This document shows positions 4,390 to 54,937 of a DNA stretch of 64,000 bases, in pieces. The first letter of the stretch is position 1; every line of letters starts with the position of its first letter. The notes under the pieces are model-generated. The model did not search any database. It had not been told where the DNA came from and worked only from the letters and a program-made list of their open reading frames with translations. The position numbers and the translations under genes were made by a program. Source of the stretch: an uncultured Gammaproteobacteria bacterium (lineage in GTDB: Bacteria > Patescibacteriota > Patescibacteriia > UBA9570 > XYC2-FULL-38-9); the NCBI GenBank assembly GCA_964344485.1, contig CAYFNF010000003.1, positions 148,467 through 212,466 of the forward strand, given 5' to 3'.

Positions 4390-4896
4390 CTACACGGTGT
4401 CGCGGAAGGTCTCTTGCGGCTGATCGATCCACGGGCACTCACCGCTGGCGTCTGTTGCCACGAACTGCGCGTGGACGTCCGGTTCGACCGTTGAGGTCTG
4501 CTTGTGCCACAGGACAGCGAGCGTGATCTCGTCGCGTGGGATACTCTCCCAGTCAGCAAGCCACTGCAGGGTGCGTTCCGTGGTCAGACCCGAGTCCGTC
4601 AGGTCATCGACCAGAATCACTCCAGCGCGCCGAAGCGGTTTGGCTGAAGTGAGGTCGCGGCTGAGCATGACCTCGCGCTGCTTCTGGTCCCCGTCCGGGT
4701 AGCTGGAGACCGAGAGCACGGCCAGCGGAAGACCGAGCGTACGAGCGATCAGCTCACCGGGCAGCATGCCGCCCTTGGCGATGCAGATCACCTGCTGGAA
4801 CTCGATTCCGCTCTCGCGAAGCTTCCGGATCAGGGTCCGGACCAGCTCGAAGTATGCGTCCCAGGTCACGTGTATTCGCGGGTGTTCGTCTGACAT
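4390..4896 (-). CDS. gpt: Xanthine-guanine phosphoribosyltransferase-like PRTase (high-GC island A)
   Basis: IHVTWDAYFELVRTLIRKL, ICIAKGGMLPGELIARTLGLP, SVSSY, PRPP motif VILVDDLTDSGLT and PWIDQP parallel E. coli Gpt block by block. GGAGGA lies 10 nt upstream of the ATG at 4896; the ORF-track start at 4914 is an alternative. Line 4441-4500 has 39/60 G+C. Confidence 0.75.
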   Translation of the reverse strand: MSDEHPRIHVTWDAYFELVRTLIRKLRESGIEFQQVICIAKGGMLPGELIARTLGLPLAVLSVSSYPDGDQKQREVMLSRDLTSAKPLRRAGVILVDDLTDSGLTTERTLQWLADWESIPRDEITLAVLWHKQTSTVEPDVHAQFVATDASGECPWIDQPQETFRDTV

Positions 4897-4975
4897 GATG
4901 GTTCCGTCCTCCAATTAGTTTTGCCCGTTTCTATTGTACAACAAAAACAGTTTTTTTAGTATGTAGGGCTATAAA

Positions 4976-5893
4976 TTAATTTACCGTATAATCTGCGAAC
5001 TCGGGCTCTCGGATGAATTCAACATGAGCCAGGTTGCCGACTCCTGTTTCCTGGTCCTGACGAATCATGCGCTCTAGATGTGGAATAATGCTCTCTGGAT
5101 AAAAACGAATCGCGCTTAAACTATTTCTCAGCACATCGGATAAACGCACAGTTGCGTTTCCGGTCTCTTGAAAAGAAGGATCAATATGCTGGATTAATTG
5201 TTCGAGTAAACCGCGGAGGTGAGCCTCTGCTCGTCGCATGTTTTCCACTTCATCGTCTCGTAATTGTATTTTTCCACTATGTATCAATTCCATAATATGA
5301 CTGGAAAGAACACCGAATAGATGTGGATTCTCCATTTCAAGTTTATAGTAGCGATGAGATCCACCTTGTTCATCAGTAACCAAGAACTGTATTTCATCCA
5401 TAGGGTACTCTCTGACTCCTGCTTTGCTCATCAAGTTTGGCATTGCGAGAACACGATCCTGGTCCCCAATGCTTGCAGTGAGCTCTTTGACTAGTCGATC
5501 AATCTCAGGAGCAGAACGATCCAATACAGTTGTGCGGTCCCCAGAATACTCCGTGCCAGGTTGTTCTCGTTGAATGACAAGCTTTCGATCAAGCACCGCG
5601 TTGTTCACCGTACGCCCAACAAAGTAATCTACTTGTGTTCTATCCAACGTACGTAGTAAGCTCGTGCGGTTATAACGCTTTCCTAGTGTTGGTGTTCGTA
5701 GCTGATCATACGTACCTTGCGAGAACTCCCGTTGCGGTTCACGTGTGAGTAAATGCTGTAGGTATCGCTCGGAACGTTCGACTGTTTGTCCTTCTTTTAG
5801 TTTCTCTTCTCTCAACCGCGCAACAAAACCTGGATCATCGCGTAAGCGCGGATCTTGCCATCCTCCCCTTTGATATAACGGCCTACCTGGCAT
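4976..5893 (-). CDS. Hypothetical protein (305 aa)
   Basis: Long ORF of backbone composition with no signal peptide or TM segment and no domain I recognise. A TATAAT box at 5900-5905 lies 6 nt upstream of the ATG. Confidence 0.55.
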   Translation of the reverse strand: MPGRPLYQRGGWQDPRLRDDPGFVARLREEKLKEGQTVERSERYLQHLLTREPQREFSQGTYDQLRTPTLGKRYNRTSLLRTLDRTQVDYFVGRTVNNAVLDRKLVIQREQPGTEYSGDRTTVLDRSAPEIDRLVKELTASIGDQDRVLAMPNLMSKAGVREYPMDEIQFLVTDEQGGSHRYYKLEMENPHLFGVLSSHIMELIHSGKIQLRDDEVENMRRAEAHLRGLLEQLIQHIDPSFQETGNATVRLSDVLRNSLSAIRFYPESIIPHLERMIRQDQETGVGNLAHVEFIREPEFADYTVN

Positions 5894-5943
5894 TGTTGTA
5901 TTATACTACTATCTGTCTCTATTCTGGGTCTGAATTACTGCTT

Positions 5944-5980
5944 TGTCAATATTGACAGCTTTTACTACGTGATATATAGT
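5944..5980 (+). promoter_or_regulatory. Sigma70-like promoter TTGACA-17-TATAGT, with its -35 inside a 14-bp palindrome
   Basis: TTGACA at 5952-5957, a 17-nt spacer, and TATAGT at 5975-5980. TGTCAATATTGACA (5944-5957) is a perfect palindrome that places a second TTGACA on the minus strand. Confidence 0.5.
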
Positions 5981-5989
5981 ACTCGCAAC

Positions 5990-6040
5990 ATGAAGAACCA
6001 CGTATACAACGCTACAGTAACAACTACCCACCTTATGTGA
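5990..6040 (+). other. Mini-ORF (16 codons, MKNHVYNATVTTTHLM) or small RNA within a promoter-terminator unit
   Basis: The ATG is 9 nt after the TATAGT box, the same leaderless geometry as real genes here. There is no SD. The unit is followed by the terminator at 6070-6092. Confidence 0.3.
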
Positions 6041-6069
6041 GGCGTTGTTTAGTTTGTATCAATACCCTA

Positions 6070-6092
6070 GCGCCTCACTCGAGGCGCTTTTT
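6070..6092 (+). terminator. Intrinsic terminator
   Basis: GCGCCTC-ACTC-GAGGCGC (7-bp GC-rich stem) followed by TTTTT. Confidence 0.65.
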
Positions 6093-6107
6093 GATTATTT
6101 ATTCATT

Positions 6108-6235
6108 ATGAACTTTCTCTTTTTTCAATCAACTACTACACCGTTATTGCTCTTCTTCCTCACTGGAACAGTGCCGTAATTAGTGTTGTGTAGTTGAAAG
6201 GAAGAAGAGCGCGGTCCGAATGGGCCGTGTTTTTG
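6108..6235 (+). promoter_or_regulatory. Structured leader upstream of the carboxylate-amine ligase gene: mini-ORF, long-range helix, inner hairpin and a second terminator
   Basis: A 23-codon ORF spans 6108-6179 (MNFLFFQSTTTPLLLFFLTGTVP). A perfect 12-bp inverted repeat pairs GCTCTTCTTCCT (6149-6160) with AGGAAGAAGAGC (6199-6210). An inner hairpin CACTG-GAA-CAGTG lies at 6161-6173. CAACTAC (6130-6136) is complementary to GTAGTTG (6190-6196). Terminator CGCGGTCC-GAAT-GGGCCGTG plus TTTTT lies at 6210-6235. Confidence 0.45.
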
Positions 6236-6263
6236 TTCTTTTGAATGTAAAGGAGGAATTCCA

Positions 6264-7232
6264 ATGTATGGAATTGAAGCAGAGTATCTGATGACGAGTC
6301 ATCGCATCCAAGATGTGCTCAAGCTGCAGCTCCCGGGCGTGACCGCCGAGTTCTTCGACTTCATGGTCGAGATCATCACGGATCCGCACGCGCGTGCACG
6401 TCAGGCTGTGGACCAGCTGGAGCGTCGGGTGCAAAGAATGCGTCGACGAGGTGTGGAGCTCGAGCAGTGGGCGTCCTTCCCGGACCGAGTTCAGCCGATT
6501 ACGTTCACGGACGTGGTCGCAGACAGCCCGTACTACCGCTGGGTCTATGACCAAGCGTGTAGATTCACGGGTCATGAGCCGCTGGACCTGCACCATGTGG
6601 GCATGCACCTGAACTACTCGTGCTCGGACATGAGCGAAAACGAGCTGGTGCACGCGGTGAACTGGTGTCGGTGCATGAACTTCTTGTTCATCCTGTTCTC
6701 AGCAAACTCACCGTTCCAGAATGGGCAGTCCTGCGGGCTACTGTCACGACGGTCATATCAGTACCCCAACCGATACGACGTCCCGCTGTGGGAAAGCGCC
6801 GTCGCGTTCAAGCGCTGGATCCAGGAGCAAGAAGCGTTGTATCGCATCTACCCTGGAAAAGGTCGCTGCTGGATGACGGTCTGCCCGCGCTTAGAGGATA
6901 ATGATTTCCGCAAACCGATTCAACGGATCGAACTGCGATCGTTAGACTCAGGCACCAATGTCCGCTTCGGTGTTGTGCACGGGTGCTGCAAGCTACTCGA
7001 GCGCATTGTCTTGCGCGCACGCCAAGGAGCGCCCCTGCCAGCGCAACTGAACGAACTGCAGCACAACGATCGAGAGGTCTCGCGGCTCGGAGCAAGCGCA
7101 TGGGTACGCTTGAATGGGCAAGAGTTCTGCGTGCAGCAGCTCGCTGAACAATGGGCAGCGGGTATCGACACGCTGGAGCAGATATTAACGCACGGATGCG
7201 CAGCACAATCGTCCTTGCGCTACTGCGTTTAA
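6264..7232 (+). CDS. Carboxylate-amine ligase, glutamate-cysteine ligase family 2 (YbdK-like) (high-GC island B)
   Basis: The N-terminal YGIEAEYLM and EFFDFMVEIITDP..ARQAVDQLERRV follow the GCS2 pattern (G-x-E-x-E, then E...E..T.P with a helical region). At 322 aa it is shorter than typical YbdK. AAAGGAGG lies 7 nt upstream of the ATG. Line 6361-6420 has 38/60 G+C. Confidence 0.65.
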   Translation: MYGIEAEYLMTSHRIQDVLKLQLPGVTAEFFDFMVEIITDPHARARQAVDQLERRVQRMRRRGVELEQWASFPDRVQPITFTDVVADSPYYRWVYDQACRFTGHEPLDLHHVGMHLNYSCSDMSENELVHAVNWCRCMNFLFILFSANSPFQNGQSCGLLSRRSYQYPNRYDVPLWESAVAFKRWIQEQEALYRIYPGKGRCWMTVCPRLEDNDFRKPIQRIELRSLDSGTNVRFGVVHGCCKLLERIVLRARQGAPLPAQLNELQHNDREVSRLGASAWVRLNGQEFCVQQLAEQWAAGIDTLEQILTHGCAAQSSLRYCV

Positions 7233-7327
7233 CTCTCTGCAACACAAAGAGAACATGGTCTAGTATGAGCCACACATCATACTTTTTTTCTTTCTTCTAA
7301 ACTGCGCCTACGAATAATAAAACGGTA

Positions 7328-8551
7328 TTATTTCATTCTGAACTTCTTCCATGGGCTCCACTTGCTCCACCCAGCATCATTGCCGCATCGCACTCTGAAA
7401 CGATAGTACTGTTTACTCTTCACGAATTTCTTTGACTTTTTCAGAAATTTTGAATTAGTAGTAAGTCCTTTAAACTTTTTCACAGATGTAAATTTCCCGT
7501 TTGCTTTCTTTTTTTGTAACACTGCTTGATAGGTATCGGCATTTGCTTTCGCTTTCCACCACAACTTTGCTGACTTCTTCTTTTTCTTTTTCACTTTCAG
7601 ATGCTTCTTTTTCTTGATCTTGCTTGGTGCAGTGAGTTCATTAATTGTAAAATTTGCTAATGCATAATCTTCTGCTGAATCTGCTGCGCCATCAGTGGTC
7701 ATAGCAACACTATGCGCTCCGGCAATCCCAGCAACAGCATCACTGATCAATAAATCATACGCATCTTCATTACTTTTAGCTACGTCGGTAAGGACCTCAC
7801 AACTGAGTACAGAATTCTGACTGAGGTCATACGTTAAAATCTCATCTAAAGTGCCTTTAGAATTGTCTATAGTTGCATCAGTTAGATCCCACCCTGATTC
7901 ACTAGGCGATTTATTCTCTGCAACAAACACAATGCTTAGCTCTTCTCCGCTAGATAATCCACGGCTAAGCGTAAAATAGAGTTCTAGATCCAGTGTAGAG
8001 CCGGCGGTTGCCTCAGTTGGAGAAACTGATAACGAACCTACGGCATTTCCAAGGCCTTGGATGGACACAGTATCATCAGTCATGGTTGCATTCGCACTTT
8101 CACTCAGAGGCTGCGTTGTAACTCCAAAGCGAATTGACGTTGCCTCATCAGGATTCACCGCATCTGCTAGGGTGACGGTATACTTGTCTGCGGGGAGTTT
8201 TGCGGATAACGTTAATACAGTGCCCCTGCCATCAAGCACTGGTGAAAAAATAAAATTGGAGTTGCCAATAGATCCCTCTGATGAAGGAACCACATTTTGT
8301 AAATTTACATACTCCGGACCGTCGTCTTCTGTAGAGAAAATTGAGATAGTTGAACCGCTGGGTAGATCTACGTTAGTAGTGACGGCGATAGTATACGTCT
8401 CGGTTTCCCCAGCAATAGAAGCTGTTGGTGCAGCGGATACTTCTGATATATTTGCATCTTCCGTTCCTTGCATGCTAAATGCTTGCGCAGATGATGGCGC
8501 GTACACCAGGACTGCTGCGATAGCGAGTGTAAGCAAGATTGTTTTTTTCAT
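7328..8551 (-). CDS. Secreted surface protein with a poly-lysine linker and a C-terminal fibronectin type III-like domain
   Basis: Signal peptide MKKTILLTLAIAAVLVYAPSSAQA. The body is S/T/D/E-rich. The linker is KIKKKKHLKVKKKKKKSAK. The FN3-like end is LWWKAKANADTYQ...YYRFRVRCGNDAGWSKWSPW. Confidence 0.7.
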   Translation of the reverse strand: MKKTILLTLAIAAVLVYAPSSAQAFSMQGTEDANISEVSAAPTASIAGETETYTIAVTTNVDLPSGSTISIFSTEDDGPEYVNLQNVVPSSEGSIGNSNFIFSPVLDGRGTVLTLSAKLPADKYTVTLADAVNPDEATSIRFGVTTQPLSESANATMTDDTVSIQGLGNAVGSLSVSPTEATAGSTLDLELYFTLSRGLSSGEELSIVFVAENKSPSESGWDLTDATIDNSKGTLDEILTYDLSQNSVLSCEVLTDVAKSNEDAYDLLISDAVAGIAGAHSVAMTTDGAADSAEDYALANFTINELTAPSKIKKKKHLKVKKKKKKSAKLWWKAKANADTYQAVLQKKKANGKFTSVKKFKGLTTNSKFLKKSKKFVKSKQYYRFRVRCGNDAGWSKWSPWKKFRMK

Positions 8552-9173: not shown

Positions 9174-9240
9174 ATAATTCCTTTCTAAAAGAACACGGAC
9201 ATGAGTATATCGTACTCTTTTTTAAACGTCAATAGACTCT

Positions 9241-9915
9241 CTATTCGTCTTCGGATGCTGCTACTTCTTCTTTATACTCATCCAAAGTAATGCATGTTTG
9301 GTTTGCCCGGTCCCAACACTTACCTTCTCCACATGCGCAGTCATCAGTAGACCCTTGCCCACAGGTTAACCCTTCACCGCTGGCAATAGCTTCTTCTCGC
9401 GCTACCTGTGTTGCACAAGTGCCGGTGCATGTGGTGGGGTACTCAATCCAATCCCCGCCTTCAGCATTACATGCAGCAGCTTCTTCCTTGTCATGCTCTT
9501 TTGGGATTACGGTAAAATCCACAGGCGCTTCCTCTTCAACTGGTTCATCCGGCGTCTCAATTGCCATCTTGTACTCTTCCATTGTCATACAAGCTTCATG
9601 AATATCGTTCCAGCATAGGTTGTTACCGCAATCACAAGATACCCTCTCGGAAAACCCACATATAGGGTCATTTGTTTCGTTGAACACCGCTTCTCTGCAC
9701 GTATCAGTACAGCCAGAAAACAGTTCCCACGAACCTCCTGAATCTACACATCCTTCTATTTGGTCCCTGGTGGCGGTACCGCCTTTTTCTGCTTGCTTTA
9801 TCGCGTACGAAGTTGAGTTGTAATAGATGAAAAGACCGATAAAAACCAATGCTGATATTGCAAAAACAGTTATGACAGTAGCTATCAATATCACATCCAA
9901 TGGAGGGCGCTTCAT
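9241..9915 (-). CDS. Membrane-anchored extracellular protein with two 8-Cys modules
   Basis: N-terminal TM anchor (VILIATVITVFAISALVFIGLFIY). Two homologous modules follow the pattern C..GG.W......C...C....C..C.CG...CW....C.t.-EYK, separated by an acidic linker. Confidence 0.65.
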   Translation of the reverse strand: MKRPPLDVILIATVITVFAISALVFIGLFIYYNSTSYAIKQAEKGGTATRDQIEGCVDSGGSWELFSGCTDTCREAVFNETNDPICGFSERVSCDCGNNLCWNDIHEACMTMEEYKMAIETPDEPVEEEAPVDFTVIPKEHDKEEAAACNAEGGDWIEYPTTCTGTCATQVAREEAIASGEGLTCGQGSTDDCACGEGKCWDRANQTCITLDEYKEEVAASEDE

Positions 9916-9925
9916 ACCGTTCTTT

Positions 9926-11320
<1,395 letters not shown>

Positions 11321-11323
11321 ACG

Positions 11324-13114
11324 TTATCCTAACTTTCGTAAAGATTCCGTGAGTACACGAAATTCTTCTGAAAGCTGCTCGATCGTAGCATTATCATTAC
11401 TTTGTTCAGCTGTTGCAAGATCCTGTTCGATCTTCTTCAGCTGTCGTTGTATGCGAAATCGCTCTAAGCTTTCTAATAGAGTGAGCAGTTCTTGTTGTAT
11501 TTCTCTTGTTTCACGCTCACTATAGAGCTCTTCTCCGATGAGTTGAAGTTGCTGCCATTTGGATGACAATTGTGATGATTCAAACTCAACTGCATCTGGA
11601 GAAAAAGTACCTGCTTGATTATAATGGGATTCTATTTTTTTGTAAAGGTCTTGGAGTTCAGGGTCATGAATCGTATCTGACCGGACTTTCTCAGCAATCG
11701 CTGTAAATTCATCAGGTTTTACAGTAATTAGGGCAAGTAATCGCTCGACAGTCATATATTCCCGGTTGGGTTTTACTGTTTTTTGTGGTGTTTCTGTTGC
11801 ATCGCCCTTTGAGCCTCGCGCTTGGCTTTTTTGTTGTTTCTTGTTCATACTGCCTATCTTCTCTTGTAGTACGTCTGGGGTTACATCCAGAACCTCAGCG
11901 AGTTTTTTTACATAATGTGTTTGCTCAATTCTATCAGGGAACAGCGCAAGCATGGGCAGAAGCTCTTGTGCTGCCTTTTTCTTGTGATGCACATTGGTGA
12001 GATCAAGTGGCTCTAGAACAGAATCAAATGCATACTCCATGAACGGTTTTGCGTTTACAGCTCGATCGCGGAACTCTTGCGGGTCTTTCTTGATTAGATC
12101 GTCTGGATCTTGGCCTGGCGGAAGAATAAGGACTTTGATATTCATTCCTTGCTGGATCGCGAGCTGCATTCCTCGCCATGCAGCAGAGAGTCCTGCGGTG
12201 TCAGCGTCGAACGCTAAAATCACATTCGCAGAGTAGCGCTTGAGTAAACGGACCTGCTCTTCAGTGAGCGCGGTCCCGGATGCAGAGACCACGTTGCGGA
12301 ATTTCGCTTGATACGCAGTGATCACATCGGTGTAGCCTTCTACAATAACGGTCGCGTCCATCTTCTGAATATACTTCTTTGCCAAATGCAATCCATACAG
12401 TACTGCGCTCTTGTTATAAACCGGGGTCTGCGGAGAATTAATATACTTTGCTTCTTTCTCTTCTGGATTTAACGTGCGTCCGCCGAATCCAATGATGTTT
12501 CCATGTGCATTGTGAATAGGAAATAGTAACCGGCCACGAAATCGGTCGTAATACCCGCCGGTTTTCTCTGACGGCACAATCAGTCCGCTGCGTTCAATCT
12601 CCTTCTCTTTATAACCGTTCTTTTTTAAGTGATTCATCAACGCGTCCCATGAGTCCAAGCTGTAGCCGATCTGAAACAACTCAACCGTCTCTTTTTGAAT
12701 TCCCCGGTCAGTAATATACCTTCGAGCGTTCTCTGCTTCTTGTGCGTTTTGTAGCTGTGCTTGAAAGAAAGAATTTGCTTCTTTGAGGCAGTCCAGGAGA
12801 CGTGTCTTTTCATTATGTTCTCTTGGATTTGTTGGTCGTAACTCCACATTTGCTTTCTGTGCAAGAATACGCAATGCTTCTGCGAATTCTATAGATTCAA
12901 TCTCTTGGACGAACGTAAAGAGGTCGCCACCCTTGCCACATCCAAAACAGTGGAACATCTGCTTGGGTTCAGAGACCATAAAACTCGGTGTTTTCTCATT
13001 ATGGAATGGGCACCGTGCTTTGTGATTTGCGCCTGCTTTTTTTAGTGAAACGTACTCTTGGACTACGTCCACTATGTTCAAGCGTTCTTTGATCTCCTCG
13101 ACTGGTGTAGGCAT
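11324..13114 (-). CDS. dnaG: DNA primase
   Basis: Zinc ribbon CPFHNEKTPSF...CFGCGKGGD, RNA polymerase core, and TOPRIM motifs VIVEGYTDV and AFDADTAG. 596 aa. Confidence 0.95.
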   Translation of the reverse strand: MPTPVEEIKERLNIVDVVQEYVSLKKAGANHKARCPFHNEKTPSFMVSEPKQMFHCFGCGKGGDLFTFVQEIESIEFAEALRILAQKANVELRPTNPREHNEKTRLLDCLKEANSFFQAQLQNAQEAENARRYITDRGIQKETVELFQIGYSLDSWDALMNHLKKNGYKEKEIERSGLIVPSEKTGGYYDRFRGRLLFPIHNAHGNIIGFGGRTLNPEEKEAKYINSPQTPVYNKSAVLYGLHLAKKYIQKMDATVIVEGYTDVITAYQAKFRNVVSASGTALTEEQVRLLKRYSANVILAFDADTAGLSAAWRGMQLAIQQGMNIKVLILPPGQDPDDLIKKDPQEFRDRAVNAKPFMEYAFDSVLEPLDLTNVHHKKKAAQELLPMLALFPDRIEQTHYVKKLAEVLDVTPDVLQEKIGSMNKKQQKSQARGSKGDATETPQKTVKPNREYMTVERLLALITVKPDEFTAIAEKVRSDTIHDPELQDLYKKIESHYNQAGTFSPDAVEFESSQLSSKWQQLQLIGEELYSERETREIQQELLTLLESLERFRIQRQLKKIEQDLATAEQSNDNATIEQLSEEFRVLTESLRKLG

Positions 13115-18214: not shown

Positions 18215-21200
18215 TTATGTTGTTATCCTACCATATCCCATTACTGTTGGAAGTAGTCTCATTGGGCTAATATCTCGATATCGTGTCTTGCCTGGTTCCC
18301 CGGTTGGCTCTTCCATGCGAGCAAGATACGCCCCGGTTGCTAGAGACTTCATAAATTTCTCGAACCCTTCATGGATTGCGCGTCCTCCTTCAGAGATAAT
18401 CATCAATACCTCTTTATACTTCTCACCGGTTTCCAAGGTGCCTGACACCACCGCAGCAACACGTTCTAACTGTTCTGCTTCAACATCAGGCACAAACGTG
18501 CGAATTCCCTCTTGCACTAACGCCGGGTTCTGGAATTGTGCGAGCATGCCTAAGAATATCTTCTTAATGCTATCAATCTCTGTTTGCGCGATCTCGCCCG
18601 CGCTTCCAAGGTCCAGCTCTCCGAGTTCACCATCTGGCGTGACCACCCAATTTCCTGGGTGCGGATCTGCTTGAAATCGTCCTTTCACGAATATTTGATA
18701 CATGAGCGCGTCAAACGCTTGTACGTGGATATCTTCTAATCGACCGACGAGACCTTCATACGCAGTCATTTCATCTGGCTGCAAGTCGTATTTCGCTTGA
18801 AAATCTGCCAAGGTGCGTCGCCCCATTGCTACGTCAGTTAATTCTCGTAACGACAACCCTCGAATCTCCTCTTCTAATATATGTTCTTCACTGTGATCTA
18901 GGATCTCTGCAATGCGCACCGGGAACAGACGCGCCATAGCTGCTTGTGGGTAGTCTTCCATAGCCGCAGCCACTGCTTCATGATTCCGTACTTCTTCTTG
19001 GAAGTTTGCCTCATCACGTAACCAACGACCGATACGATCTTCCAAACCATCAGGTACAGTAAAATCTGCTTCGCGAAGATTTCCCATAATCCTATTCAGT
19101 ACCCGAAGGTCTTCCCCGAGATGCTTTGCAATAGATGGTCTTCGCACTTTTGCAATCACACGCTGTCCGTCTTCTCTAGTCGCACGATAGACTTGTTTAA
19201 TTGACGCAGCAGAGATTCGTCTGTCCATAGAAACCAGCCGATGTGGATGGCCTTCTTCAAACTGTCCCACTGCTCCCATCATGTGCATGCTGGCAGTACG
19301 GTGGAACGTTTTTGCGTTCTGTTGGAGCTTGCGCAATTCCTCGGCGATGTCATCAGGGAGCAACGGGGTACCGTCCGCGTTCTTTTCTTCAGCTAAGACT
19401 TGGCCTGCTTTAATACCGACTGGCCCGACCGCTTCTAGTAATCCACGCAGGCGTTCTCCAATTGTAGAGTCTCCTTGTCCGCGTAGTACTTCCATCATCT
19501 CGATGTAGACTTTTGCACGTCGGAATGGACCGTACTCTTGTAATGCAGTTGTAAAGATCACTCGTACTGCTTCTCTTCCTCTCTCTCCCAGTGCTTCTGC
19601 TGCTTCAGGTGGAAAGACTCGCTCAAACGATCGATCAATAAATTCTTGGAATATCGCTTCGTCTTCTTCTTCGCGCGGGTCCATGACACCGTTCTCTCCA
19701 AAGAGCAAACGGATATAGGTCTCTTCGCGTTCCTGTGGAGTGGCTGCAAAGAGTAGGTCTGGCATGTCTTCCACTGAGCACTCATTATGTCCACCGAATG
19801 CACGTAATATGCGCGGAGGTTGATCAGTCTCTCCGATAGTCCATAATACAAATTCTTTTCTGTCTTCACGGTTTAAATATGCTAAAACCGAATTGATTTT
19901 CTCTACTGTAGATTGTTGTGATAGTTCTGCGTCCTCGGTGGTGCGTCGTTGTACATCAAAAAGACGGCGTGTGATTTCCCGTGCTTGTGGAGGAGTGCGG
20001 ACTACGCCAGTATCTCCAAGTTGCAATAGCGCTTCACCCCGTACATGTGATGCGTGTGGGTAGAGCTCACTGATACGATCCAATTCGCTCGCAAAGGTCT
20101 CTTCCCCTGTTGCAAGGTGTTCTCGGAATAATGAATTCGCTCTTCGTGACCAAAGCTGCTGATGCGCTTGATCTGCAAACAGTGGAATGGTTCGTTGATA
20201 AAACGTATATAGTTCATGTGCAACATCTGGCTGAATCTCGTTCCCTTCTGGTGCAACAACTTCGTGTCCGTTCGTAGTAAGGCCACGCTCTTGTAGTAAT
20301 GCTGTTTCTATGGCGCCTAATAATTCATCACGATAATTCGTCACCTCTGGAATGAGTTCTTGAACGCGGTCCACTCTTCCAACTGCGGGGATCGAGGGAT
20401 CCGCTGGTAATTGAGTGTAGTCTATATAGAACTCTAGTGCATTGTACCGCTCTGAGTATTTGCGGTCCCCTCGGAATATCGTAGTAAAGCTCGGCGCAGA
20501 AGGATCATACGCTGCAGCATCAGATTCGATATTACGGGGGATCAACTCACTAGTGCTTTTTGAATAATGCGACTCTCGATCTATCGGGTGATAACGTTGA
20601 ACGAATCCACTCTCCACCACCTCATCTGGAAGCGCTCCTGGATGATACACTCGAAAGATGTCGCGAAGCTGCGTATCACGTGTGGAAACTGGAACAAACT
20701 GCGTTATAGCTGCAACACTCTCATCTTCTGATCGCTCATCTGGTTCCACATGCCATCTGCCCCATTGCCATATAATGCCGTGCGCTTCTAGTGCTCGTTG
20801 CATAATTGAATATGTAACCCCGCGATCAATACGATCCACGCCCCATTCTCCACTTCTATCTTCGGCTTGTTTGCATTTCCCTTCTATCTCTACGCAATAC
20901 CGTGCGAGCTCTTCTAGCTCTGGCTGAGTGAGTGCATCAAATGCTGCTTGTAAATCTGCAGCGTGTGGTGAAACGCTGGTATCAAAATTAATCGCGCCGT
21001 CTCGCAGCACTCTCTTCAGCGGCGCAACGATGGAATCGCCTGGATTAAGCACCATATACAACCGAACATACTCAATAGACAGCGAAATGCTATAGATAGC
21101 AGCTGCTTTATCGCGCTCTGTATAATCCTCAACTTCACGTCTGTCGATACAGTCGCTATCCCACTTCGGTACCACATCAAGTGCTGCCTCTAAAAAGTCT

Positions 21201-23764
21201 AACTGCTCTTGCTCTGACATACGTGCTCGTCGCTCTGCATCATTCCATGCTCCTCGAATGTGCGTCCATATTACTGAGGGATCTTCTCCTTCTAGAAAGC
21301 GGAGCATCTCTGCAGGTGGAACAGAATCAGAACATGATGATATAATCGCATCCAGAAACTCTTGTCGAGCTCGTTTAGATTCATACGTCACTGCAGGGTA
21401 TAGATGAAGTATCGGTGCGGCTCGCTCAACTAAGTCATCGTATGATGCTATCCCGACTTCATGCAACAATCCAACTAACTCAGCTTGATGCAGAGAAGCA
21501 ACTTCAGCATGGGAAACCTGTAAAATACTATGCATCTGTTCTAGGCGTTCTTGAGGGGTGAGTGTTTGAAACCCTTCTCTCTCAGCTCGTGCTTGGATCG
21601 CACGAGTTACCACGTGCTCCCATAATACATAGATAGCATCAGCACCGCGGAGAGGTGCGTCAAATCCTGTTTCTTCTAAAAATAATTCGTTCGCTGAGGG
21701 TCTCGCTTCTATAGCTGGTTGTGGAAAGTGGCGTAACCACTGTTCACACTCCTGTTGTGAAAGTGTTGCAACAAAACCTTCAAGTTCCGCGGGTTGATAT
21801 CCTCTTGCAGATAACTTCATGGCGAGTTCAGCAACCAACTGTCCAAGTGTAGCGGCGTGCTCTGCTGAAAGTAATGCGCGACCCTCTGCGCTAGTAGTAT
21901 ACCGCTGTGCAAACCGCTGAGCGAGTTCCGGAAGTATACGATCAACAGTAGGAGAAGGAATGGTCCGTGGTTCTAAGGCTGGCATGGATTCTCCTGTGGC
22001 AATTGCTTGTCCTAACGCGGCAAGCGCTTCATTGTCATCACTATCAAACGCGTTTCGCGCTTCCATCATGAGAACTTGCCTGATGACTGCTACTCTTCCC
22101 TCTGGAGTTGAGACATCATCTGCTCTACGTAACTCTTCAGGTAGATAATGCTCTCTTGTGAGGTCGACTGTTAAGACACCTTGAGTGAGTTTGTCCAGCT
22201 GCATCTTCCAATTGCGTGCTTGGTCATGAAAAAATGGGGTACTGCTTTCACTGCAGAGAGTCATAAGCTCTTCAGGCTCTGCTGCACGCACTTGCTCTTT
22301 TACTGCATCATTATATTCATATCCGTCTTCTTTCGGCCCGTCGATATCTGCGTTAGAAATAAGCGTGTCTAGCGTGTCAGCGGACACACCATCAACTACT
22401 GCTTCTAGCTGTGCACGAAGATGCTGTACTTTACGTTGTAGTTCAATACGTGCTGCAAGCTTTGCTGCTTTTTCATGATCGTCCGGGTCTTCATCAGCAG
22501 CTGCTTGCGCTTGTGGAATTTGCTCACTGAGAAACCGTAGTGTTTCATCATATGCTTTGATTACTTCCGCGCGTTGCCGCTGCAGTCGCGTGTGCAGCGA
22601 TCGTTCAAATTTCTCTTCGTCATACGGCCCTTCCTCTACTTGTGCCCCAAAATCAAATTCTCTATCCATATATCGAGAGAGTTTATCCGGTGCTACCGAA
22701 GCCCTTGCCAAATACTCTGCTCTTCCTTCAGAGTAATGGTAACCGTAATATGCGGCATGTAGTGCATTGAGCACTTCTGCAAAATTGTGAAGCACAATCC
22801 TCTGTGCATAGTGTTTTCGCATTCGCTCCTGCTCTGCTGCGTGATGAAATAACGCGTGACGATCTAATACAAAAGCAGCAACACCAACTTCAACCGCATC
22901 ATGAAAACTCTCAGCTTGAGCGATCATGTCTTCAATATGGTCTAAACCCTCAGCACGGTACAATCGCGTGCCAGGTCGGCCGGGTGGTTCATCGATAAAT
23001 GCACGTTGCACTTCTGCTGGAACAACGGTCGGCTCTTTTTCAATATTCGGTAGCCAGGTGTCTGGGCTCTCCACTAACTCCACGAGCTCTCTATATCTAT
23101 CAGCGGATCGAGGGTGGGATGTTCCAATAGGCAGATCATTCGATAGGCTTAATAGAAACTGGATAGCTGCTAATCCCTCACGTGGATTATATCCAGCTTG
23201 TGCAAGTGCGATCAGTCCACCACGGTCAGCGTCGTATTCCGCATTCAAGCGGCGCTGCTTCTCATCGTGATCTGGATAGTCTTCATGAACGACGCCTTCT
23301 TCAGTATGCTGATCAATATGTGTACTTTCATGCGCTGCCACCATAGCGATCATGTCTTCGGTCATTGGTCGACCGTGTCGTTCGCACCAGCGCCCAAGTT
23401 CTCGCAGCAATCCCATGTATGTGTAGACGTGCGCGTGCCCGCTTACGACAAACGCATTAATTCCGGGTGAATCAATTGCAACCACATCAGTGGCGGGAAT
23501 CGATAACTGCCGCTCAATTCTTGCTTGAATGCGTGCCAGCATCTCTTTTCGCGGATCATCATCATCTAGAATTCCAAAACGCTGCTCCAATTGATAGAGC
23601 ATTCGTCGTAAATACGCTTCTGTTTGGTCTTGCCTACTTTGTGCTTCTGCAAGCCCAATTATTTCTACTCTTGGCGGTTCATCATGATCAACTTCAGGAA
23701 CTTCAGCAATTGAACGTGCTGGTCGTGGTAGTCTGGATTCTGATGCTGCAGCGTGTGAGTTCAT
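18215..23764 (-). CDS. Giant fusion protein (1849 aa): N-terminal M48-like zinc peptidase motifs and a C-terminal UbiB/ABC1-type atypical kinase domain
   Basis: The N-terminus has SPGINAFVVSG...MIAMVAAHESTHID (HExxH at 23318-23332) and EYDADRGGLIALAQAGYNP, the M48 pattern. The C-terminus has AASIKQVYRATREDGQRVIAKVRRPSI and FQADPHPGNWVV (about 18650-18676), the ABC1/UbiB signatures. A TATAAT box at 23770-23775 lies 5 nt upstream of the ATG. Confidence 0.8.
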   Translation of the reverse strand: MNSHAAASESRLPRPARSIAEVPEVDHDEPPRVEIIGLAEAQSRQDQTEAYLRRMLYQLEQRFGILDDDDPRKEMLARIQARIERQLSIPATDVVAIDSPGINAFVVSGHAHVYTYMGLLRELGRWCERHGRPMTEDMIAMVAAHESTHIDQHTEEGVVHEDYPDHDEKQRRLNAEYDADRGGLIALAQAGYNPREGLAAIQFLLSLSNDLPIGTSHPRSADRYRELVELVESPDTWLPNIEKEPTVVPAEVQRAFIDEPPGRPGTRLYRAEGLDHIEDMIAQAESFHDAVEVGVAAFVLDRHALFHHAAEQERMRKHYAQRIVLHNFAEVLNALHAAYYGYHYSEGRAEYLARASVAPDKLSRYMDREFDFGAQVEEGPYDEEKFERSLHTRLQRQRAEVIKAYDETLRFLSEQIPQAQAAADEDPDDHEKAAKLAARIELQRKVQHLRAQLEAVVDGVSADTLDTLISNADIDGPKEDGYEYNDAVKEQVRAAEPEELMTLCSESSTPFFHDQARNWKMQLDKLTQGVLTVDLTREHYLPEELRRADDVSTPEGRVAVIRQVLMMEARNAFDSDDNEALAALGQAIATGESMPALEPRTIPSPTVDRILPELAQRFAQRYTTSAEGRALLSAEHAATLGQLVAELAMKLSARGYQPAELEGFVATLSQQECEQWLRHFPQPAIEARPSANELFLEETGFDAPLRGADAIYVLWEHVVTRAIQARAEREGFQTLTPQERLEQMHSILQVSHAEVASLHQAELVGLLHEVGIASYDDLVERAAPILHLYPAVTYESKRARQEFLDAIISSCSDSVPPAEMLRFLEGEDPSVIWTHIRGAWNDAERRARMSEQEQLDFLEAALDVVPKWDSDCIDRREVEDYTERDKAAAIYSISLSIEYVRLYMVLNPGDSIVAPLKRVLRDGAINFDTSVSPHAADLQAAFDALTQPELEELARYCVEIEGKCKQAEDRSGEWGVDRIDRGVTYSIMQRALEAHGIIWQWGRWHVEPDERSEDESVAAITQFVPVSTRDTQLRDIFRVYHPGALPDEVVESGFVQRYHPIDRESHYSKSTSELIPRNIESDAAAYDPSAPSFTTIFRGDRKYSERYNALEFYIDYTQLPADPSIPAVGRVDRVQELIPEVTNYRDELLGAIETALLQERGLTTNGHEVVAPEGNEIQPDVAHELYTFYQRTIPLFADQAHQQLWSRRANSLFREHLATGEETFASELDRISELYPHASHVRGEALLQLGDTGVVRTPPQAREITRRLFDVQRRTTEDAELSQQSTVEKINSVLAYLNREDRKEFVLWTIGETDQPPRILRAFGGHNECSVEDMPDLLFAATPQEREETYIRLLFGENGVMDPREEEDEAIFQEFIDRSFERVFPPEAAEALGERGREAVRVIFTTALQEYGPFRRAKVYIEMMEVLRGQGDSTIGERLRGLLEAVGPVGIKAGQVLAEEKNADGTPLLPDDIAEELRKLQQNAKTFHRTASMHMMGAVGQFEEGHPHRLVSMDRRISAASIKQVYRATREDGQRVIAKVRRPSIAKHLGEDLRVLNRIMGNLREADFTVPDGLEDRIGRWLRDEANFQEEVRNHEAVAAAMEDYPQAAMARLFPVRIAEILDHSEEHILEEEIRGLSLRELTDVAMGRRTLADFQAKYDLQPDEMTAYEGLVGRLEDIHVQAFDALMYQIFVKGRFQADPHPGNWVVTPDGELGELDLGSAGEIAQTEIDSIKKIFLGMLAQFQNPALVQEGIRTFVPDVEAEQLERVAAVVSGTLETGEKYKEVLMIISEGGRAIHEGFEKFMKSLATGAYLARMEEPTGEPGKTRYRDISPMRLLPTVMGYGRITT

Positions 23765-29346: not shown

Positions 29347-29465
29347 ACAATAAAATCCGGGAAAAAGCGGGTTTTGCTGTCCGCAGGATACAAAAAAAGC
29401 CAGGGACCCACGATCGGGTGTGGCGTTAGCTCAGGAACGGGTGACGCGGTGCTGCGTCGGTCCGG

Positions 29466-29759
29466 CTACGCGCTGGGCGCGTCGCTGGCCAGGGCCAGCA
29501 GGCCGTCCGGCATGACCGCGGCGAGCGTACCGAGGTGGCCGACGCCGTTGGCGCCGCTCGAGCCGTTCCCGGGCTCGTTGGACTGCGCGTCCTGGTCGGC
29601 GGTACCGCCGTCGCTGCTGCCGTCGTCGTCCGGGCTCTTCCTCTGGCTGCTGCCGGGCAGGCCGTCCGCCTCGCCACGTCGGGCGAGCTGGGCCGTGAGG
29701 TTCTGTGAGCCACCGACTCCGCGGTGCAGGGGGCAGGCGTTCCGTCGTCTCTGCGTCAT
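29466..29759 (-). CDS. Small G/S/D-rich, probably disordered protein (97 aa) (high-GC island C)
   Basis: GAGGAG lies 5 nt upstream of the ATG. Third codon positions in this frame are almost all G/C, which picks this frame over four overlapping alternatives. Line 29521-29580 has 45/60 G+C. No recognisable domain. Confidence 0.5.
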   Translation of the reverse strand: MTQRRRNACPLHRGVGGSQNLTAQLARRGEADGLPGSSQRKSPDDDGSSDGGTADQDAQSNEPGNGSSGANGVGHLGTLAAVMPDGLLALASDAPSA

Positions 29760-33878: not shown

Positions 33879-34313
33879 TCATATTGAACAATAAAAAAAA
33901 GCTGCTGTTGCAGGTACTGACCAGGCTGCGGCTACGCGGGTGAGTGCGAGTCTGTCACGTCGCAGAACTCGTTCCGGTACCTCCAGGGCAGTGAGCTGCC
34001 CCGCGGTGTAGCGCTGCCAGATGATGAGCTGATCCAGGTGCGTTCCCGGGATGCTGCTGAGCGCAGCGTTGGTGCGGCGCACAGCCGTGAGCACGGTCAT
34101 GGGAGGTGCACCGTTGGCAGATGCCTCGGTTCCGCTGGCCACGTAGATGCGGCCCTCTCCACGTACCTCGTCCAGCTCCTCGCTGGTGAAGCCCCCGCCC
34201 AGTGAATCGGGCTTGAAGACCTGGAGGCTCCCGATCTCCACCACCAGCCTGAGCGCGGTCTCGCTGGCGTACAGCACGTGCGTCGGCGTTCCAGAAGTTG
34301 TGTTGCAGTTCAT
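33879..34313 (-). CDS. Unknown soluble protein (144 aa), possibly 3'-truncated or fused (high-GC island D)
   Basis: The ATG at 34313 has GGAG 8 nt upstream. A candidate promoter TTGCAT-17-TATACC lies at 34396-34368. High GC ends near 33901, and the last ~7 codons (..FFYCSI) read through a T8 run into AT-rich host DNA, stopping inside the pyk -10 region. Line 34141-34200 has 41/60 G+C. Confidence 0.5.
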   Translation of the reverse strand: MNCNTTSGTPTHVLYASETALRLVVEIGSLQVFKPDSLGGGFTSEELDEVRGEGRIYVASGTEASANGAPPMTVLTAVRRTNAALSSIPGTHLDQLIIWQRYTAGQLTALEVPERVLRRDRLALTRVAAAWSVPATAAFFYCSI

Positions 34314-34523: not shown

Positions 34524-34856
34524 TTGAGCGCCGCAGCCCACGACCGAGACTTCCCGCGTACGCGAGGTGAACCCGTCGAGACCGATGACGATGTCCGTGT
34601 CGCACTGCAACGACTCGAAGCCATCCCCGCACTGGAAGGTGCAGTGGCAACGATCGTGGCCTGGTGCTTCGTGGCCTTCGCGGTCAAGGAAGGATGGTGG
34701 CACGCCATCCTGATCTTCACCCTCGTGGGATGCGTGATCGCGTCTCTGGCGTGTATCGTCCACCGGGCCGACCTGAACCGGAAGTACATCCGGTCGTTCC
34801 TGTTCTTCTTCCTGGTCTGGCCACTGGTGATGACGGTCAAGGTCAAGAGCTTCTGA
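34524..34856 (+). CDS. Small polytopic membrane protein (110 aa, 2-3 TM) (high-GC island E)
   Basis: TTG start with GGAGG 4 nt upstream. The N-terminus is acidic and is followed by the hydrophobic segments AVATIVAWCFVAFAV, AILIFTLVGCVIASLACIV and FLFFFLVWPLVM. Line 34621-34680 has 39/60 G+C. Confidence 0.5.
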   Translation: MSAAAHDRDFPRTRGEPVETDDDVRVALQRLEAIPALEGAVATIVAWCFVAFAVKEGWWHAILIFTLVGCVIASLACIVHRADLNRKYIRSFLFFFLVWPLVMTVKVKSF

Positions 34857-34989: not shown

Positions 34990-35340
34990 GTGCACCCAGA
35001 GGAGCGGGAAGCCGCTCAGGCCCAATTCAGCATCGAATCATCGCGACAGCATGCCATCATGGCGATCGCGGTGCTGGGAAGCATCGCCTTTCACGGCGTC
35101 TTCCTGCCGGTTGTCTGGATCTTCTTCGGAATGTTCATTGCAGTTGGAGCAGACATCGCCCTGTGCATTCTGGCCGCCCTGGTGTGCCAGAACTGCGTCA
35201 AGGTCGTCCGCATACCTCGTCATGCGGGCATACTGCTCACGCTGTCGTACTTCCCGGAGTTCCTGGTCTGGGCTGCAATGTGGCCGATGATGGTCACTGC
35301 TGCGAAGATCCACTTCAGTCGAATGTCACCTCCCCCTTGA
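34990..35340 (+). CDS. Small polytopic membrane protein (116 aa, 3-4 TM) (high-GC island F)
   Basis: GTG start preceded by GGGGAGATAGGA. Hydrophobic segments are AIMAIAVLGSIAFHGVFLPVVWIFFGMFIAV, ADIALCILAALV and LVWAAMWPMMV. Line 35161-35220 has 37/60 G+C. Confidence 0.5.
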   Translation: MHPEEREAAQAQFSIESSRQHAIMAIAVLGSIAFHGVFLPVVWIFFGMFIAVGADIALCILAALVCQNCVKVVRIPRHAGILLTLSYFPEFLVWAAMWPMMVTAAKIHFSRMSPPP

Positions 35341-41096: not shown

Positions 41097-41113
41097 TTAA
41101 TTAACACTATTGT

Positions 41114-54725: not shown

Positions 54726-54898
54726 TTAGTATTATATACTTTTTCCATGCGCAGAACAATGTTTTACTTTTTTAGTACAGCATGTTACAGTGCTCGTATG
54801 ATATTCATCAATGCACAATATACCGCCTGTTCATGTTCTCTTGAGTACGCCTCGAGGGATTTGTGTTTGTGTTAACTAGAACTATCAAACTTCTCCTT

Positions 54899-54918: not shown

Positions 54919-54937
54919 AATTAATAAAACAACTACT

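Follow-up and report, generated by a model that had tools for sequence, protein, structure and literature searches.

Putative threonine-codon attenuators ahead of a rare clade of compact YbdK/GCS2-like ligases in uncultured bacteria

The window, that is, the whole 64,000-nucleotide stretch of DNA that was analyzed, contains at positions 6264–7232 of the plus strand a GC-rich gene for a compact, Thr-poor ATP-dependent carboxylate-amine ligase with the GCS2/YbdK fold (322 aa, ATG start). The preliminary description of this locus, which had placed the open reading frame at exactly these positions, regarded it as a lone gene and named two mini-ORFs of the same orientation as its neighbors. The question is what such an enzyme is for, and what the two mini-ORFs do in front of it.

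Position and Composition of the Ligase Gene

The ligase gene is preceded by a strong Shine-Dalgarno sequence, AAAGGAGG (6249–6256, plus strand), located 7 nt before the start codon. It is the sole sizeable plus-strand gene between two minus-strand genes (4976–5893 and 7328–8551), and both mini-ORFs are indeed present upstream on the plus strand, at 5990–6040 and 6108–6179. According to tblastn analysis, none of the neighbors of the ligase in the window recurs at the other loci of the family. The reported absence of thiol and ergothioneine genes holds for the neighborhood of the ligase, and no egtB-E genes of an EgtA-type context were found among the Pfam-scanned proteins of the window or in the gene lists of related loci. 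A CysK/CysM-like gene lies at 54863–55825, 48 kb from the ligase.

The high GC content noted earlier (about 63% in a sampled line) was reproduced: the gene has 57.8% GC versus 45.8% for the whole window, with up to 62.5% in 200-nt windows inside it, and its GC3 is 70% versus approximately 37–50% in neighboring genes. Of the six hosts with long flanks, five show a GC3 excess in the ligase coding sequence, and the hosts retaining it span 36–51% GC. The excess is limited to the coding sequence and constitutes a compositional anomaly. The window ligase contains 3.1% Thr versus 6.95% in the other proteins of the window, and uses the Thr codons ACG and ACC, whereas the leaders described below use ACA and ACU. 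Across the ligase family, the Thr content varies from 2.4 to 6.9%, so that the depletion is not uniform.

Fold, Motifs and Phylogenetic Rarity of the Ligase

The assignment of the protein as a GCS2/YbdK-type carboxylate-amine ligase is supported by profile searches and by the predicted structure, neither of which gives a different fold. The Pfam GCS2 profile PF04107 matches residues 19–193 (E = 1.5e-10, 41.4 bits, gathering score 21). With the NCBIfam YbdK-family model TIGR02050 the protein scores 42.6 bits, below the curated cutoff of 176.4, which indicates a divergent sister clade and not a typical YbdK. The GshA equivalog models (TIGR02048, NF010043 and others) gave at best 38.2 bits with a cutoff of 249. 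A comparison of the 17-sequence family with 27 canonical GCS2 proteins, including E. coli YbdK, in the hhalign program produced a full-length alignment (columns 7–334 versus 17–362; probability 99.9%, E = 2.9e-37). The AF2 model of the ligase has a pLDDT of 87, and its top PDB match in Foldseek is YbdK (1r8g_A, E = 7.8e-12, TM 0.68), followed by GshA/GshF, PafA/Dop and glutamine synthetase; the PafA/Dop matches are weaker than those of YbdK and GshA (E approximately 2e-5, TM approximately 0.5).

Iyer et al. in 2008 described five motifs of the superfamily (PMC2588565): strand 1 bears GhExE, strands 2 and 3 bear acidic residues, strand 4 has [HD]x[NH] and strand 6 has Ex[RK]xxD, and Arg residues are found in strand 5 and the loop before it. 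All five are conserved in the ligase family, where the motif residues are invariant or nearly so among 17–21 sequences. In the window ligase they correspond to G3-I-E5-A-E7, E29, E36, H115-L-N117, R163, R209 and E223-L-R225-S-L-D228; the G-I-E-x-E and E..E..T.P motifs recognized in the preliminary description are thus found as G3-I-E5-A-E7 and E29...E36..T39.P41. The protein is, as had been stated, shorter than typical GCS2 members (322 aa versus 372 aa for E. coli YbdK). Since all members of the clade are 307–361 aa long, the short length is a family trait and not a truncation. Conservation extends to every metal- and ATP-binding residue. The computational data support an intact enzyme with a predicted glutamine-synthetase fold, which, judging by its motifs, should be catalytically competent.

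The clade is a compact, very rare sister group of YbdK/GCS2. It comprises approximately 20 sequences among about 15 billion proteins, with a sharp score gap around it: the most distant member scores 1e-47, a degenerate relative 1e-18 and other GCS2 proteins approximately 1e-8. Scans with a 7-sequence alignment gained no more than a single genome locus and a single metagenome locus. The ligases of the leader-bearing loci are 27–52% identical; no homologue above approximately 52% identity and no donor clade were found in the databases searched. The hosts are uncultured bacteria, one of the samples being from groundwater.

Leader Region of the Window

The region between the divergent minus-strand gene and the ligase appears to hold two leader units in tandem, A and B. 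Unit A begins with a sigma-70-like promoter at 5952–5980 of the plus strand (TTGACA-17-TATAGT, 11 of 12 consensus matches), whose -35 box makes up one half of the palindrome TGTCAATATTGACA (5944–5957), common to this promoter and to a divergent promoter-like site. The promoter ends 9 nt before the ATG of ORF-A, so the transcript of ORF-A would be nearly leaderless. By eye, the same arrangement of TTGACA-17-TAnnnT, then 8–9 nt, then the ATG of ORF-A recurs in loci L001, L003 and L006. No clear Shine-Dalgarno sequence is seen by eye before the leader ORFs, and ORF-A would require near-leaderless initiation.

ORF-A (5990–6040, plus strand) has 16 codons and encodes MKNHVYNATVTTTHLM, with Thr codons at 6014–6016 and 6020–6028; its counterparts are MRNRRFTTTTLNFLFSR in L001, MRNVRFTTTTTDTIFIG in L003 and MQYTRTSITTTTTSTPIPRS in L006. 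The ORF-A stop codon is held within a putative antiterminator strand, UGUGAGGCGUUG (6036–6047, plus strand), which pairs with 6069–6079, i.e., with the 5' arm and loop of terminator A. The energy of this duplex is -18.3 kcal/mol versus -6.2 ± 2.1 for shuffled sequences (0 of 500 as good). Predicted terminator A (6069–6096, plus strand) consists of an 8-bp G+C-rich hairpin at 6069–6088, AGCGCCUC-ACUC-GAGGCGCU, and a U-rich tail (-14.5 kcal/mol). In modelled folding, a ribosome at the first Thr codon abolishes terminator A, and one at the stop codon leaves it intact.

ORF-B (6108–6179, plus strand) has 23 codons and encodes MNFLFFQSTTTPLLLFFLTGTVP, beginning with MNFLFFQSTTTP, with a Thr run at 6132–6140. 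Its counterparts include MNLFILTTTTTTTNSPPV in L001, MNFYQLTTTTTTASPP in L003 and MNNSPKKQLYTTTTTP in L014, among others. In the minimum free energy structure, the segment with the Thr codons (6129–6142) is paired with 6182–6198, a 1:2 pairing that spans 6129–6198 of the plus strand and has an energy of -13.9 kcal/mol versus -7.1 ± 2.3 for shuffled sequences (fraction as good 0.012). The candidate antiterminator of this unit (6149–6210, plus strand) is partial: GCUCUUCUUCC (6149–6159) is perfectly complementary to GGAAGAAGAGC (6200–6210), which overlaps the outer part of terminator B. Predicted terminator B, a 13-bp hairpin at 6205–6234 with a U-rich tail (6205–6243 of the plus strand, -18.2 kcal/mol), stops just short of the ribosome-binding site of the ligase. 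In the models of unit B only the outer pairs are stripped, 7–10 of the 13 terminator pairs persist and the core survives every state, which suggests that unit B of the window is a weaker switch than its homologues. A fold dependent on the ribosome position was thus obtained for unit A and only in part for unit B. The Thr runs of the window have 3–4 codons versus 5–7 in the homologues.

Attenuators across the Ligase Family

Mini-ORFs with Thr runs precede the ligase gene or its operon in all ten distinct loci with enough upstream DNA (the window, L001, L003, L006, L008, L010, L014, L015, L017 and L019; L007, the second contig of the L006 locus, was counted once), with no counter-example. In L018 and L020, where the contigs end early, the terminator half is visible. 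The leader ORFs of the ten loci have 15–27 codons with runs of 3–7 Thr codons, and their arrangement varies among loci, being either tandem or single. A survey of both strands of the window and nine scanned loci found such ORFs only upstream of the ligase or its operon, except for one antisense chance match. The description of the ligase as a lone gene without context therefore does not stand, Thr-leader switches being predicted before its family in all ten loci.

Twelve leader units were analyzed, namely units A and B of the window, L001, L003 and L006, and one unit each of L008, L010, L014 and L015. Because the MAFFT alignment of these units was out of structural register, per-unit duplex energies were compared with those of shuffled sequences and constrained folds were calculated instead of counting covariations. 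All 12 units contain a hairpin with a U-tail 23–35 nt past the leader stop codon (-9.9 to -18.2 kcal/mol). The energies of the 2:3 antiterminator duplexes sum to -183.9 kcal/mol versus -83.6 ± 7.6 for shuffled sequences, the duplex being far stronger than the shuffles in 11 of the 12 units, and those of the 1:2 duplexes sum to -160.0 versus -104.6 ± 9.1. The pairing sequences themselves vary from unit to unit while complementarity is maintained. With a ribosome placed on the stop codon, the terminator remained fully intact in 11 units, and unit B of the window kept 7 of 13 pairs; with a stalled ribosome modelled on the first Thr codon, it was abolished in 10 of 12. Taken computationally, these data give good support to the mini-ORFs being Thr-codon leader peptides of a tandem transcription attenuator.

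This interpretation bears on two other readings of the locus. One, which the preliminary description raised as pure inference, is that the mini-ORF peptides are substrates of the ligase; they would then be Pup-like tags or RiPP-type precursors. Small ORFs of the same orientation are conserved immediately upstream in all loci, and PafA, a member of the superfamily, ligates a small protein. However, only the Thr run is conserved in the peptides: their C-termini are not conserved, the last residue being P, V, S, G or E, and the endings …TGTVP, …NSPPV, …TTS, …SRSG and …TTP differ and lack the Glu/Gln used in Pup ligation. A Thr side chain has no carboxylate or amine to offer. Every ORF moreover lies inside a predicted terminator/antiterminator switch with its stop codon in the antiterminator strand, and in L003 the ORFs lie before a peptidase gene and not before the ligase gene. 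A substrate role of the peptides is therefore considered very unlikely, and a leader function is preferred.

The other reading takes the enzyme for an ordinary, recently transferred YbdK-like gamma-glutamylcysteine ligase and the upstream ORFs and hairpins for coincidence. The foreign-looking GC3, the weak matches with gshA models and the presence of the CysK/CysM-like gene elsewhere in the window would agree with it. Coincidence is nevertheless hard to reconcile with leaders and switches in ten distinct loci, for which a rough chance estimate is <1e-20. In addition, the ligase scores far below every gshA and YbdK equivalog cutoff, and no glutathione synthetase or thiol genes adjoin the ligase in any locus. 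This reading is strongly disfavoured and we give it almost no weight.

Genes Linked to the Ligase

Although no partner genes were described for the window ligase, they are found elsewhere in the family. In L003, the tandem leaders are followed by a two-gene operon in which a gene for a PepT-like M20 peptidase precedes the ligase gene, and the same pair is present in L016. A thrS gene (TIGR00418, above cutoff) is located directly downstream of the ligase in two loci, after a gap of 340 bp in L001 and of 105 bp in L015. M20 or thrS linkage was detected in only 4 of 13 distinct loci, and the M20- and thrS-linked ligases are not sisters in the family tree. The window contains no M20 homologue. The GC-rich gene for a 180-aa protein beside the ligase in L008 proved to be unrelated to the GC-rich phosphoribosyltransferase of the window. 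A T-box before thrS of L001, suspected from the GGTGGAACCG motif, was not found by Rfam at E ≤ 0.1 in 1.8 kb of L001.

The co-operonic peptidase, together with a regulation that suggests threonine supply, could also agree with a Dop-like amidase, i.e., an enzyme that hydrolyzes an amide or isopeptide, such as a gamma-glutamyl or acyl threonine conjugate, with a nucleotide cofactor and releases threonine alongside M20. Dop itself is a hydrolase of the superfamily and is among the Foldseek matches. But the closest structures, YbdK and GshA, are true ligases, and the set of ligase motifs is complete; such hydrolytic activity seems to us quite improbable.

The thrS adjacency, the rare and patchy distribution and the foreign-looking composition would fit an accessory resistance gene as well. 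The attenuators would then respond to a drop in Thr-tRNA charging brought about by an inhibitor of ThrRS or a threonine antimetabolite and not by a lack of nutrients. The ligase (with M20 where present) would inactivate that compound through amide formation or cleavage, and the regulatory logic of such inducible detoxification is identical to that of threonine supply. Against it, the PADLOC defence models gave no match, searches of plasmids and viral contigs yielded no relatives, neither a transporter nor a second, resistant thrS was seen in the loci examined, and known attenuator and T-box regulons consist of supply or charging genes. Detoxification is thus regarded as unlikely, and a role in threonine supply or charging is preferred.

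Proposed Role and Mechanism

According to the proposed mechanism, transcription from the promoter at 5952–5980 would produce an RNA with ORF-A first and ORF-B second, both of which contain a Thr run. With ample charged tRNA-Thr, the ribosome would reach the stop codon and mask the segment around it, so that the downstream hairpin with its U-tract could form and transcription would end. When charged tRNA-Thr is scarce, the ribosome would stall at the Thr codons, and the stop-codon segment would be free to pair with the 5' arm of the terminator, allowing read-through into the ligase gene. Two such switches in series should limit expression to a marked shortage.

The fold, the motifs, the leaders, the alternative pairings and the gene linkage are supported computationally, and we infer that the switch may operate in vivo. 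To our knowledge, all known amino-acid attenuator and T-box regulons control genes of supply, transport and charging; by analogy, the enzyme would help to restore the threonine or Thr-tRNA pool. It therefore seems likely that the ligase behind the tandem Thr attenuators, switched on at low levels of charged tRNA-Thr, serves threonine supply or charging, and it probably works together with the PepT-like M20 peptidase. A point against this role is that ligation uses up amino acids, and it is not obvious by what route the enzyme would relieve a threonine shortage.

A bolder version, which we consider rather unlikely, is that the clade and the PepT-like M20 hydrolase carry out an as yet undescribed step, dependent on ATP, by which threonine is acquired or tRNA-Thr is charged. 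This could be an amide conjugate cycle capturing or liberating threonine, or else the pair could act on an intermediate bound to tRNA or linked to ThrRS. The hosts may be devoid of the canonical thrABC pathway, and the GC3 excess in five of the six long-flank hosts would then reflect selection on a starvation-expressed gene and not transfer.

YbdK/GCS2-type ligases are widespread, and the predicted regulation provides a rare and direct functional clue for one of their relatives. The clade as a whole appears to be tied to how far tRNA-Thr is charged, and it has links with a peptidase and with thrS; this yields a testable hypothesis on how some bacteria respond to threonine shortage.

Comparison with Known Systems

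The window ligase and E. coli YbdK/GCS2 proteins are both stand-alone single-domain enzymes with a common fold over the whole length and a common motif set (GhExE, acidic residues of strands 2 and 3, HxN, ExRxxD and two Arg). The window ligase is about 50 residues shorter than YbdK and only approximately 15% identical to it. Unlike YbdK/GCS2, its clade has invariant motifs of its own, YYRW and FPNRYDVPxW, and according to the hhalign alignment the strand-5 Arg follows the conserved Pro (CPR), whereas in GCS2 it precedes it (RP). The predicted control by Thr leaders, present at every locus with enough upstream DNA, also sets the clade apart. A literature search found no physiological substrate reported for YbdK and no report connecting GCS2/YbdK with threonine attenuation.

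PafA and Dop belong to the same superfamily and give precedents both for carboxylate donation by a small gene product and for the conversion of a ligase to a hydrolase. Their structural match with the window ligase is much weaker, and with no Pup-like ORF and no proteasome genes seen, membership in this group is not indicated.

The leader units resemble most closely the thrL attenuator of the enterobacterial thr operon (RF00506). Both have a short ORF that contains a Thr-codon run and whose stop codon belongs to the antiterminator strand. In both, the 1:2, 2:3 and 3:4 pairings exclude one another, and an intrinsic terminator lies ahead of the regulated gene. The units would work like thrL, but they are not members of RF00506 by sequence or structure: Rfam at the gathering score detected only tRNAs in the whole window, and an E-value scan of 5850–7400 yielded no meaningful match and none with the Thr_leader model RF00506 at E ≤ 10. 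Unit B of L001 showed sub-threshold matches with Phe_leader and Thr_leader (RF00506, 26.2 bits with a gathering score of 55). A loose scan of the window for leaders with runs of other amino acids returned only noise. In contrast to thrL, the leaders of the ligase clade contain Thr codons only and no Ile codons, often form two distinct units in tandem, the first apparently near-leaderless, and control the ligase with or without the peptidase and not thrABC. The attenuator would thus represent a new leader-peptide type, tandem or single, apparently co-inherited with its gene.

Another parallel is provided by Bacillota, in which tandem tRNA-sensing T-boxes are overrepresented upstream of thrS, hom, thrB, thrC and amhX, a gene for an M20 amidohydrolase (PMC12452182). 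The tandem Thr T-boxes of thrS, hom-thrCB and amhX and the tandem units described here would both act as sensors of tRNA-Thr charging in series, and both are located before threonine-related genes and a gene of the M20 family (PMC12452182). The difference lies in the mechanism: a T-box binds tRNA directly, whereas the leaders of the ligase clade would respond through stalling of the ribosome on the leader peptide.

Ligase gene and protein family

The open reading frame at 6264–7232 (+) of the window, encoding the 322 aa carboxylate-amine ligase, is present as claimed in the preliminary description, and a ribosome-binding site of consensus sequence (AAAGGAGG) lies 7 nt before it. The ligase gene is bordered by the minus-strand genes 4976–5893 and 7328–8551, and the only neighbours in its orientation among nearby plus-strand frames are indeed two mini-ORFs.

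The assignment to the GCS2/YbdK family was right. The protein matched Pfam GCS2 (PF04107) above threshold (E = 1.5e-10); matches to the NCBIfam YbdK and gshA models were weak (38–43 bits, cutoffs 176–249), and nothing significant was found among PDB sequences by single-sequence or profile search. Profile-profile alignment of 17 family members with 27 canonical GCS2 proteins, including E. coli YbdK, extended over the whole length (probability 99.9%, E = 2.9e-37). The AlphaFold model (pLDDT 87) was nearest to YbdK (1r8g; E = 7.8e-12, TM 0.68), followed by GshA/GshF, PafA/Dop and glutamine synthetases. Together, the profile-profile alignment and the model comparison settle the fold.

Carboxylate-amine ligases are defined by five features (Iyer et al., PMC2588565), all of which occur in the ligase and are invariant or nearly invariant across the family: the GhExE motif (G3, E5, E7), acidic residues in strands 2 and 3 (E29, E36), the HxN motif (H115, N117), two arginines (R163, R209) and the ExRxxD motif (E223, R225, D228). 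The protein is shorter than usual members of the family, as had been noted; the truncation or inactivity considered at the same time was not borne out, because the catalytic motifs are complete and the short length is a trait of the clade (all relatives have 307–361 aa). Computational evidence from sequence and model thus supports well an intact, YbdK-like protein, whose activity is predicted.

The ligase and its relatives form a new, rare GCS2 clade. In 5.8 billion clusters searched through a word index, 7 proteins matched the single-sequence query and 14 the 17-sequence profile. When 1.84 billion representatives were searched exhaustively by HMM, 10 clusters scored E < 1e-30, below which the scores dropped sharply to a degenerate relative (1e-18) and then to ordinary GCS2 proteins (~1e-8). 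In total, ~20 full-length members are known, 27–52% identical in the pairs compared, and their tree is star-like. No member was found on plasmid or viral contigs, and none matched defence models. One metagenome-assembled genome with a related locus is labelled Gammaproteobacteria.

Threonine-codon leader ORFs

The upstream gap measures 210–370 bp at most relatives' loci. Alignment of these gaps first exposed leader ORFs with runs of Thr codons, which were then confirmed by systematic extraction. Tandem leaders, ORF-A followed by ORF-B, are present in the window (MKNHVYNATVTTTHLM, 5990–6040, and MNFLFFQSTTTPLLLFFLTGTVP, 6108–6179, both +) and in the related loci L001 (MRNRRFTTTTLNFLFSR and MNLFILTTTTTTTNSPPV), L003 (MRNVRFTTTTTDTIFIG and MNFYQLTTTTTTASPP) and L006, of which L007 is a second contig (MQYTRTSITTTTTSTPIPRS and MFSIHHSLLQTTTTTTTIGRGALLLGE). 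A single leader without ORF-A was found in L008 (MMLAKYTTATTTTTS), L019 (MMLAKYTTVTTTTTS), L010 (MHVSLLVAPITTTTSTTSRSG), L014 (MNNSPKKQLYTTTTTP), L015 (MNCHIRCTTTTTLTRLPS) and L017 (MTYCGRYTTTTLLTRLPS). On the truncated contigs of L018 and L020 just the 3' half of a leader element is visible; the L016 contig, where the ligase directly adjoins an M20 peptidase gene, ends before the leader position. No ligase locus with enough upstream DNA lacks a Thr leader.

When both strands of the window and nine loci were scanned, Thr-run ORFs occurred at the ligase-leader position only, except for one antisense match. This sole other Thr-run mini-ORF of the window (MTTTTAAIIPKIIIQ, 41107–41154, −) lies opposite the beginning of a LemA-family gene, in antisense orientation, and probably arose by chance. 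By a rough estimate, the chance of Thr-run leaders at eight independent loci is ~1e-21. The statement that the ligase has no context was wrong: Thr leaders precede it or its operon in 10 distinct loci, and M20 or thrS partners accompany it in some. The mini-ORF peptides, mentioned earlier as conceivable ligase substrates, are unlikely in that role: apart from the Thr run nothing in them is conserved, their C-termini differ, and each ORF forms part of an RNA switch.

Predicted attenuator architecture

Twelve units, each a leader ORF with its attenuator, were analyzed (A and B of the window, L001, L003 and L006, and those of L008, L010, L014 and L015), and they would constitute a new type of Thr attenuator upstream of the ligase clade. 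A G+C-rich hairpin with a U-rich tail starts 23–35 nt past the stop codon in all 12 (in the window, 6069–6088 for unit A and 6205–6234 for unit B, both +). The segment at or near the stop codon is complementary to the 5' arm and loop of the terminator, with a summed duplex energy of −183.9 kcal/mol versus −83.6 ± 7.6 for shuffles and individual significance in 11/12 units; the Thr-codon segment in turn pairs with the stop-codon segment (sum −160.0 versus −104.6 ± 9.1 kcal/mol). The paired sequences vary between units and the complementarity is kept. With the ribosome placed on the stop codon in constrained folds, 11 of the 12 units kept the whole terminator; with it placed on the first Thr codon, 10 units lost all terminator pairs. 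Stalling of ribosomes on the Thr codons should release ligase transcription, a prediction well supported by these computations. Unit A of the window would be a clean switch (6036–6047 pairing with 6069–6079, −18.3 kcal/mol); unit B is weaker, its 11-bp pairing (6149–6159 with 6200–6210) opening the terminator in its outer part only.

A TTGACA-17-TAnnnT candidate promoter (window 5952–5980, +) lies 8–9 nt before the ORF-A ATG in 4/4 tandem loci, those other than the window being judged by eye, so the first leader would be near-leaderless. A perfect 14-nt palindrome (TGTCAATATTGACA, 5944–5957) holds back-to-back −35 boxes of this promoter and of a divergent promoter-like site of gene 4976–5893; it could also serve as an operator.

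Base composition and other genes of the window

The high GC content ascribed to the ligase gene was confirmed (57.8%, GC3 70%; window 45.8% GC, ordinary genes GC3 ~37–50%). The coding sequence is GC-richer than the host in 5/6 hosts with long flanks, with GC3 of 0.70 in the window (neighbouring genes ~0.42), 0.57 in L001 (0.19–0.28), 0.48 in L003 (0.34–0.45), 0.69 in L006 (0.39–0.59) and 0.35 in L008 (0.15–0.23); in L010, from a 61% GC host, it matches its flanks. The excess ends at the borders of the coding sequence: the leader region is host-like, as is the co-operonic M20 gene of L003 (GC3 0.34). Two explanations are possible: acquisition from donors of ~60% GC that have not been sampled, or selection acting on a gene expressed during starvation.

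Other GC-rich islands were also observed. The phosphoribosyltransferase gene 4390–4914 (−), which matches Pfam Pribosyltran and, weakly, xanthine/hypoxanthine PRTs, reaches 63% GC and GC3 of 0.80, with a jump limited to the coding sequence like that of the ligase, within a host-like row of minus-strand genes. In L008, a 180-aa gene just upstream of the ligase leader (9216–9758, +; GC3 0.53) has no Pfam match and is unrelated to this phosphoribosyltransferase. Four short islands of 57–76% GC in the 45% GC window (29450–29750, 33950–34250, 34550–34850 and 35000–35300), with all frames open and no Pfam or Rfam match, may represent remnants of foreign DNA, genes for small membrane proteins or uncharacterised RNAs.

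Products of the window include T4SS-pilin-domain proteins and large surface proteins, and biosynthetic genes are few; such a content is compatible with a small-genome lineage, which it does not prove. Two T4SS_pilin-domain proteins are encoded at 59095–60081 (−) and 62172–63317 (−), one of them fused to an M15 peptidase domain. The 1849-aa protein at 18215–23764 (−) matches M48 peptidases at its N-terminus and carries an ABC1 atypical-kinase domain at its C-terminus; its 1179-aa neighbour has no Pfam match. A CysK/CysM-like PLP enzyme (54863–55825, +; TIGR01136, 322 bits versus a cutoff of 344) is encoded 48 kb from the ligase, and therefore cysteine synthesis may exist in the host genome.

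Probable functional links to threonine

In L003, the tandem leaders are followed by a two-gene operon in which a PepT-like M20 peptidase (TIGR01883, 169 bits, below cutoff) precedes the ligase; the same gene pair occurs in L016. A bona fide thrS, encoding threonyl-tRNA synthetase, lies directly downstream of the ligase in L001 and L015 (TIGR00418, 675 and 630 bits). Neither the M20-linked nor the thrS-linked members are sisters in the ligase tree. The thrS of L001 has its own ~230-nt leader (11070–11330), in which a promoter-like TTGACA is accompanied by a GGTGGAACCG motif and by a hairpin with a T-run; by eye this leader resembles a T-box, but no Rfam T-box matched at E ≤ 0.1. The window ligase contains 3.1% Thr, half of the 6.95% in its neighbours, and uses the Thr codons ACG and ACC, versus ACA, ACU and one ACC in the leaders.

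Since, to our knowledge, no known attenuator or T-box regulon governs anything but amino-acid supply or charging, the ligase probably serves threonine supply or charging. Its chemistry might be a ligation capturing or converting a precursor, a Dop-like hydrolysis freeing threonine, or a reaction that detoxifies a ThrRS inhibitor. The ligase with its Thr attenuator provides a concrete, testable functional lead.

The leader units follow the same classical logic as the thrL and trpL attenuators. They are not members of Rfam RF00506 (Thr_leader); Phe_leader and Thr_leader matched one unit, below threshold. A close functional parallel is found in Bacillota, where the genes thrS, hom, thrB and thrC and that of an M20 amidohydrolase characteristically have T-boxes in tandem (PMC12452182).
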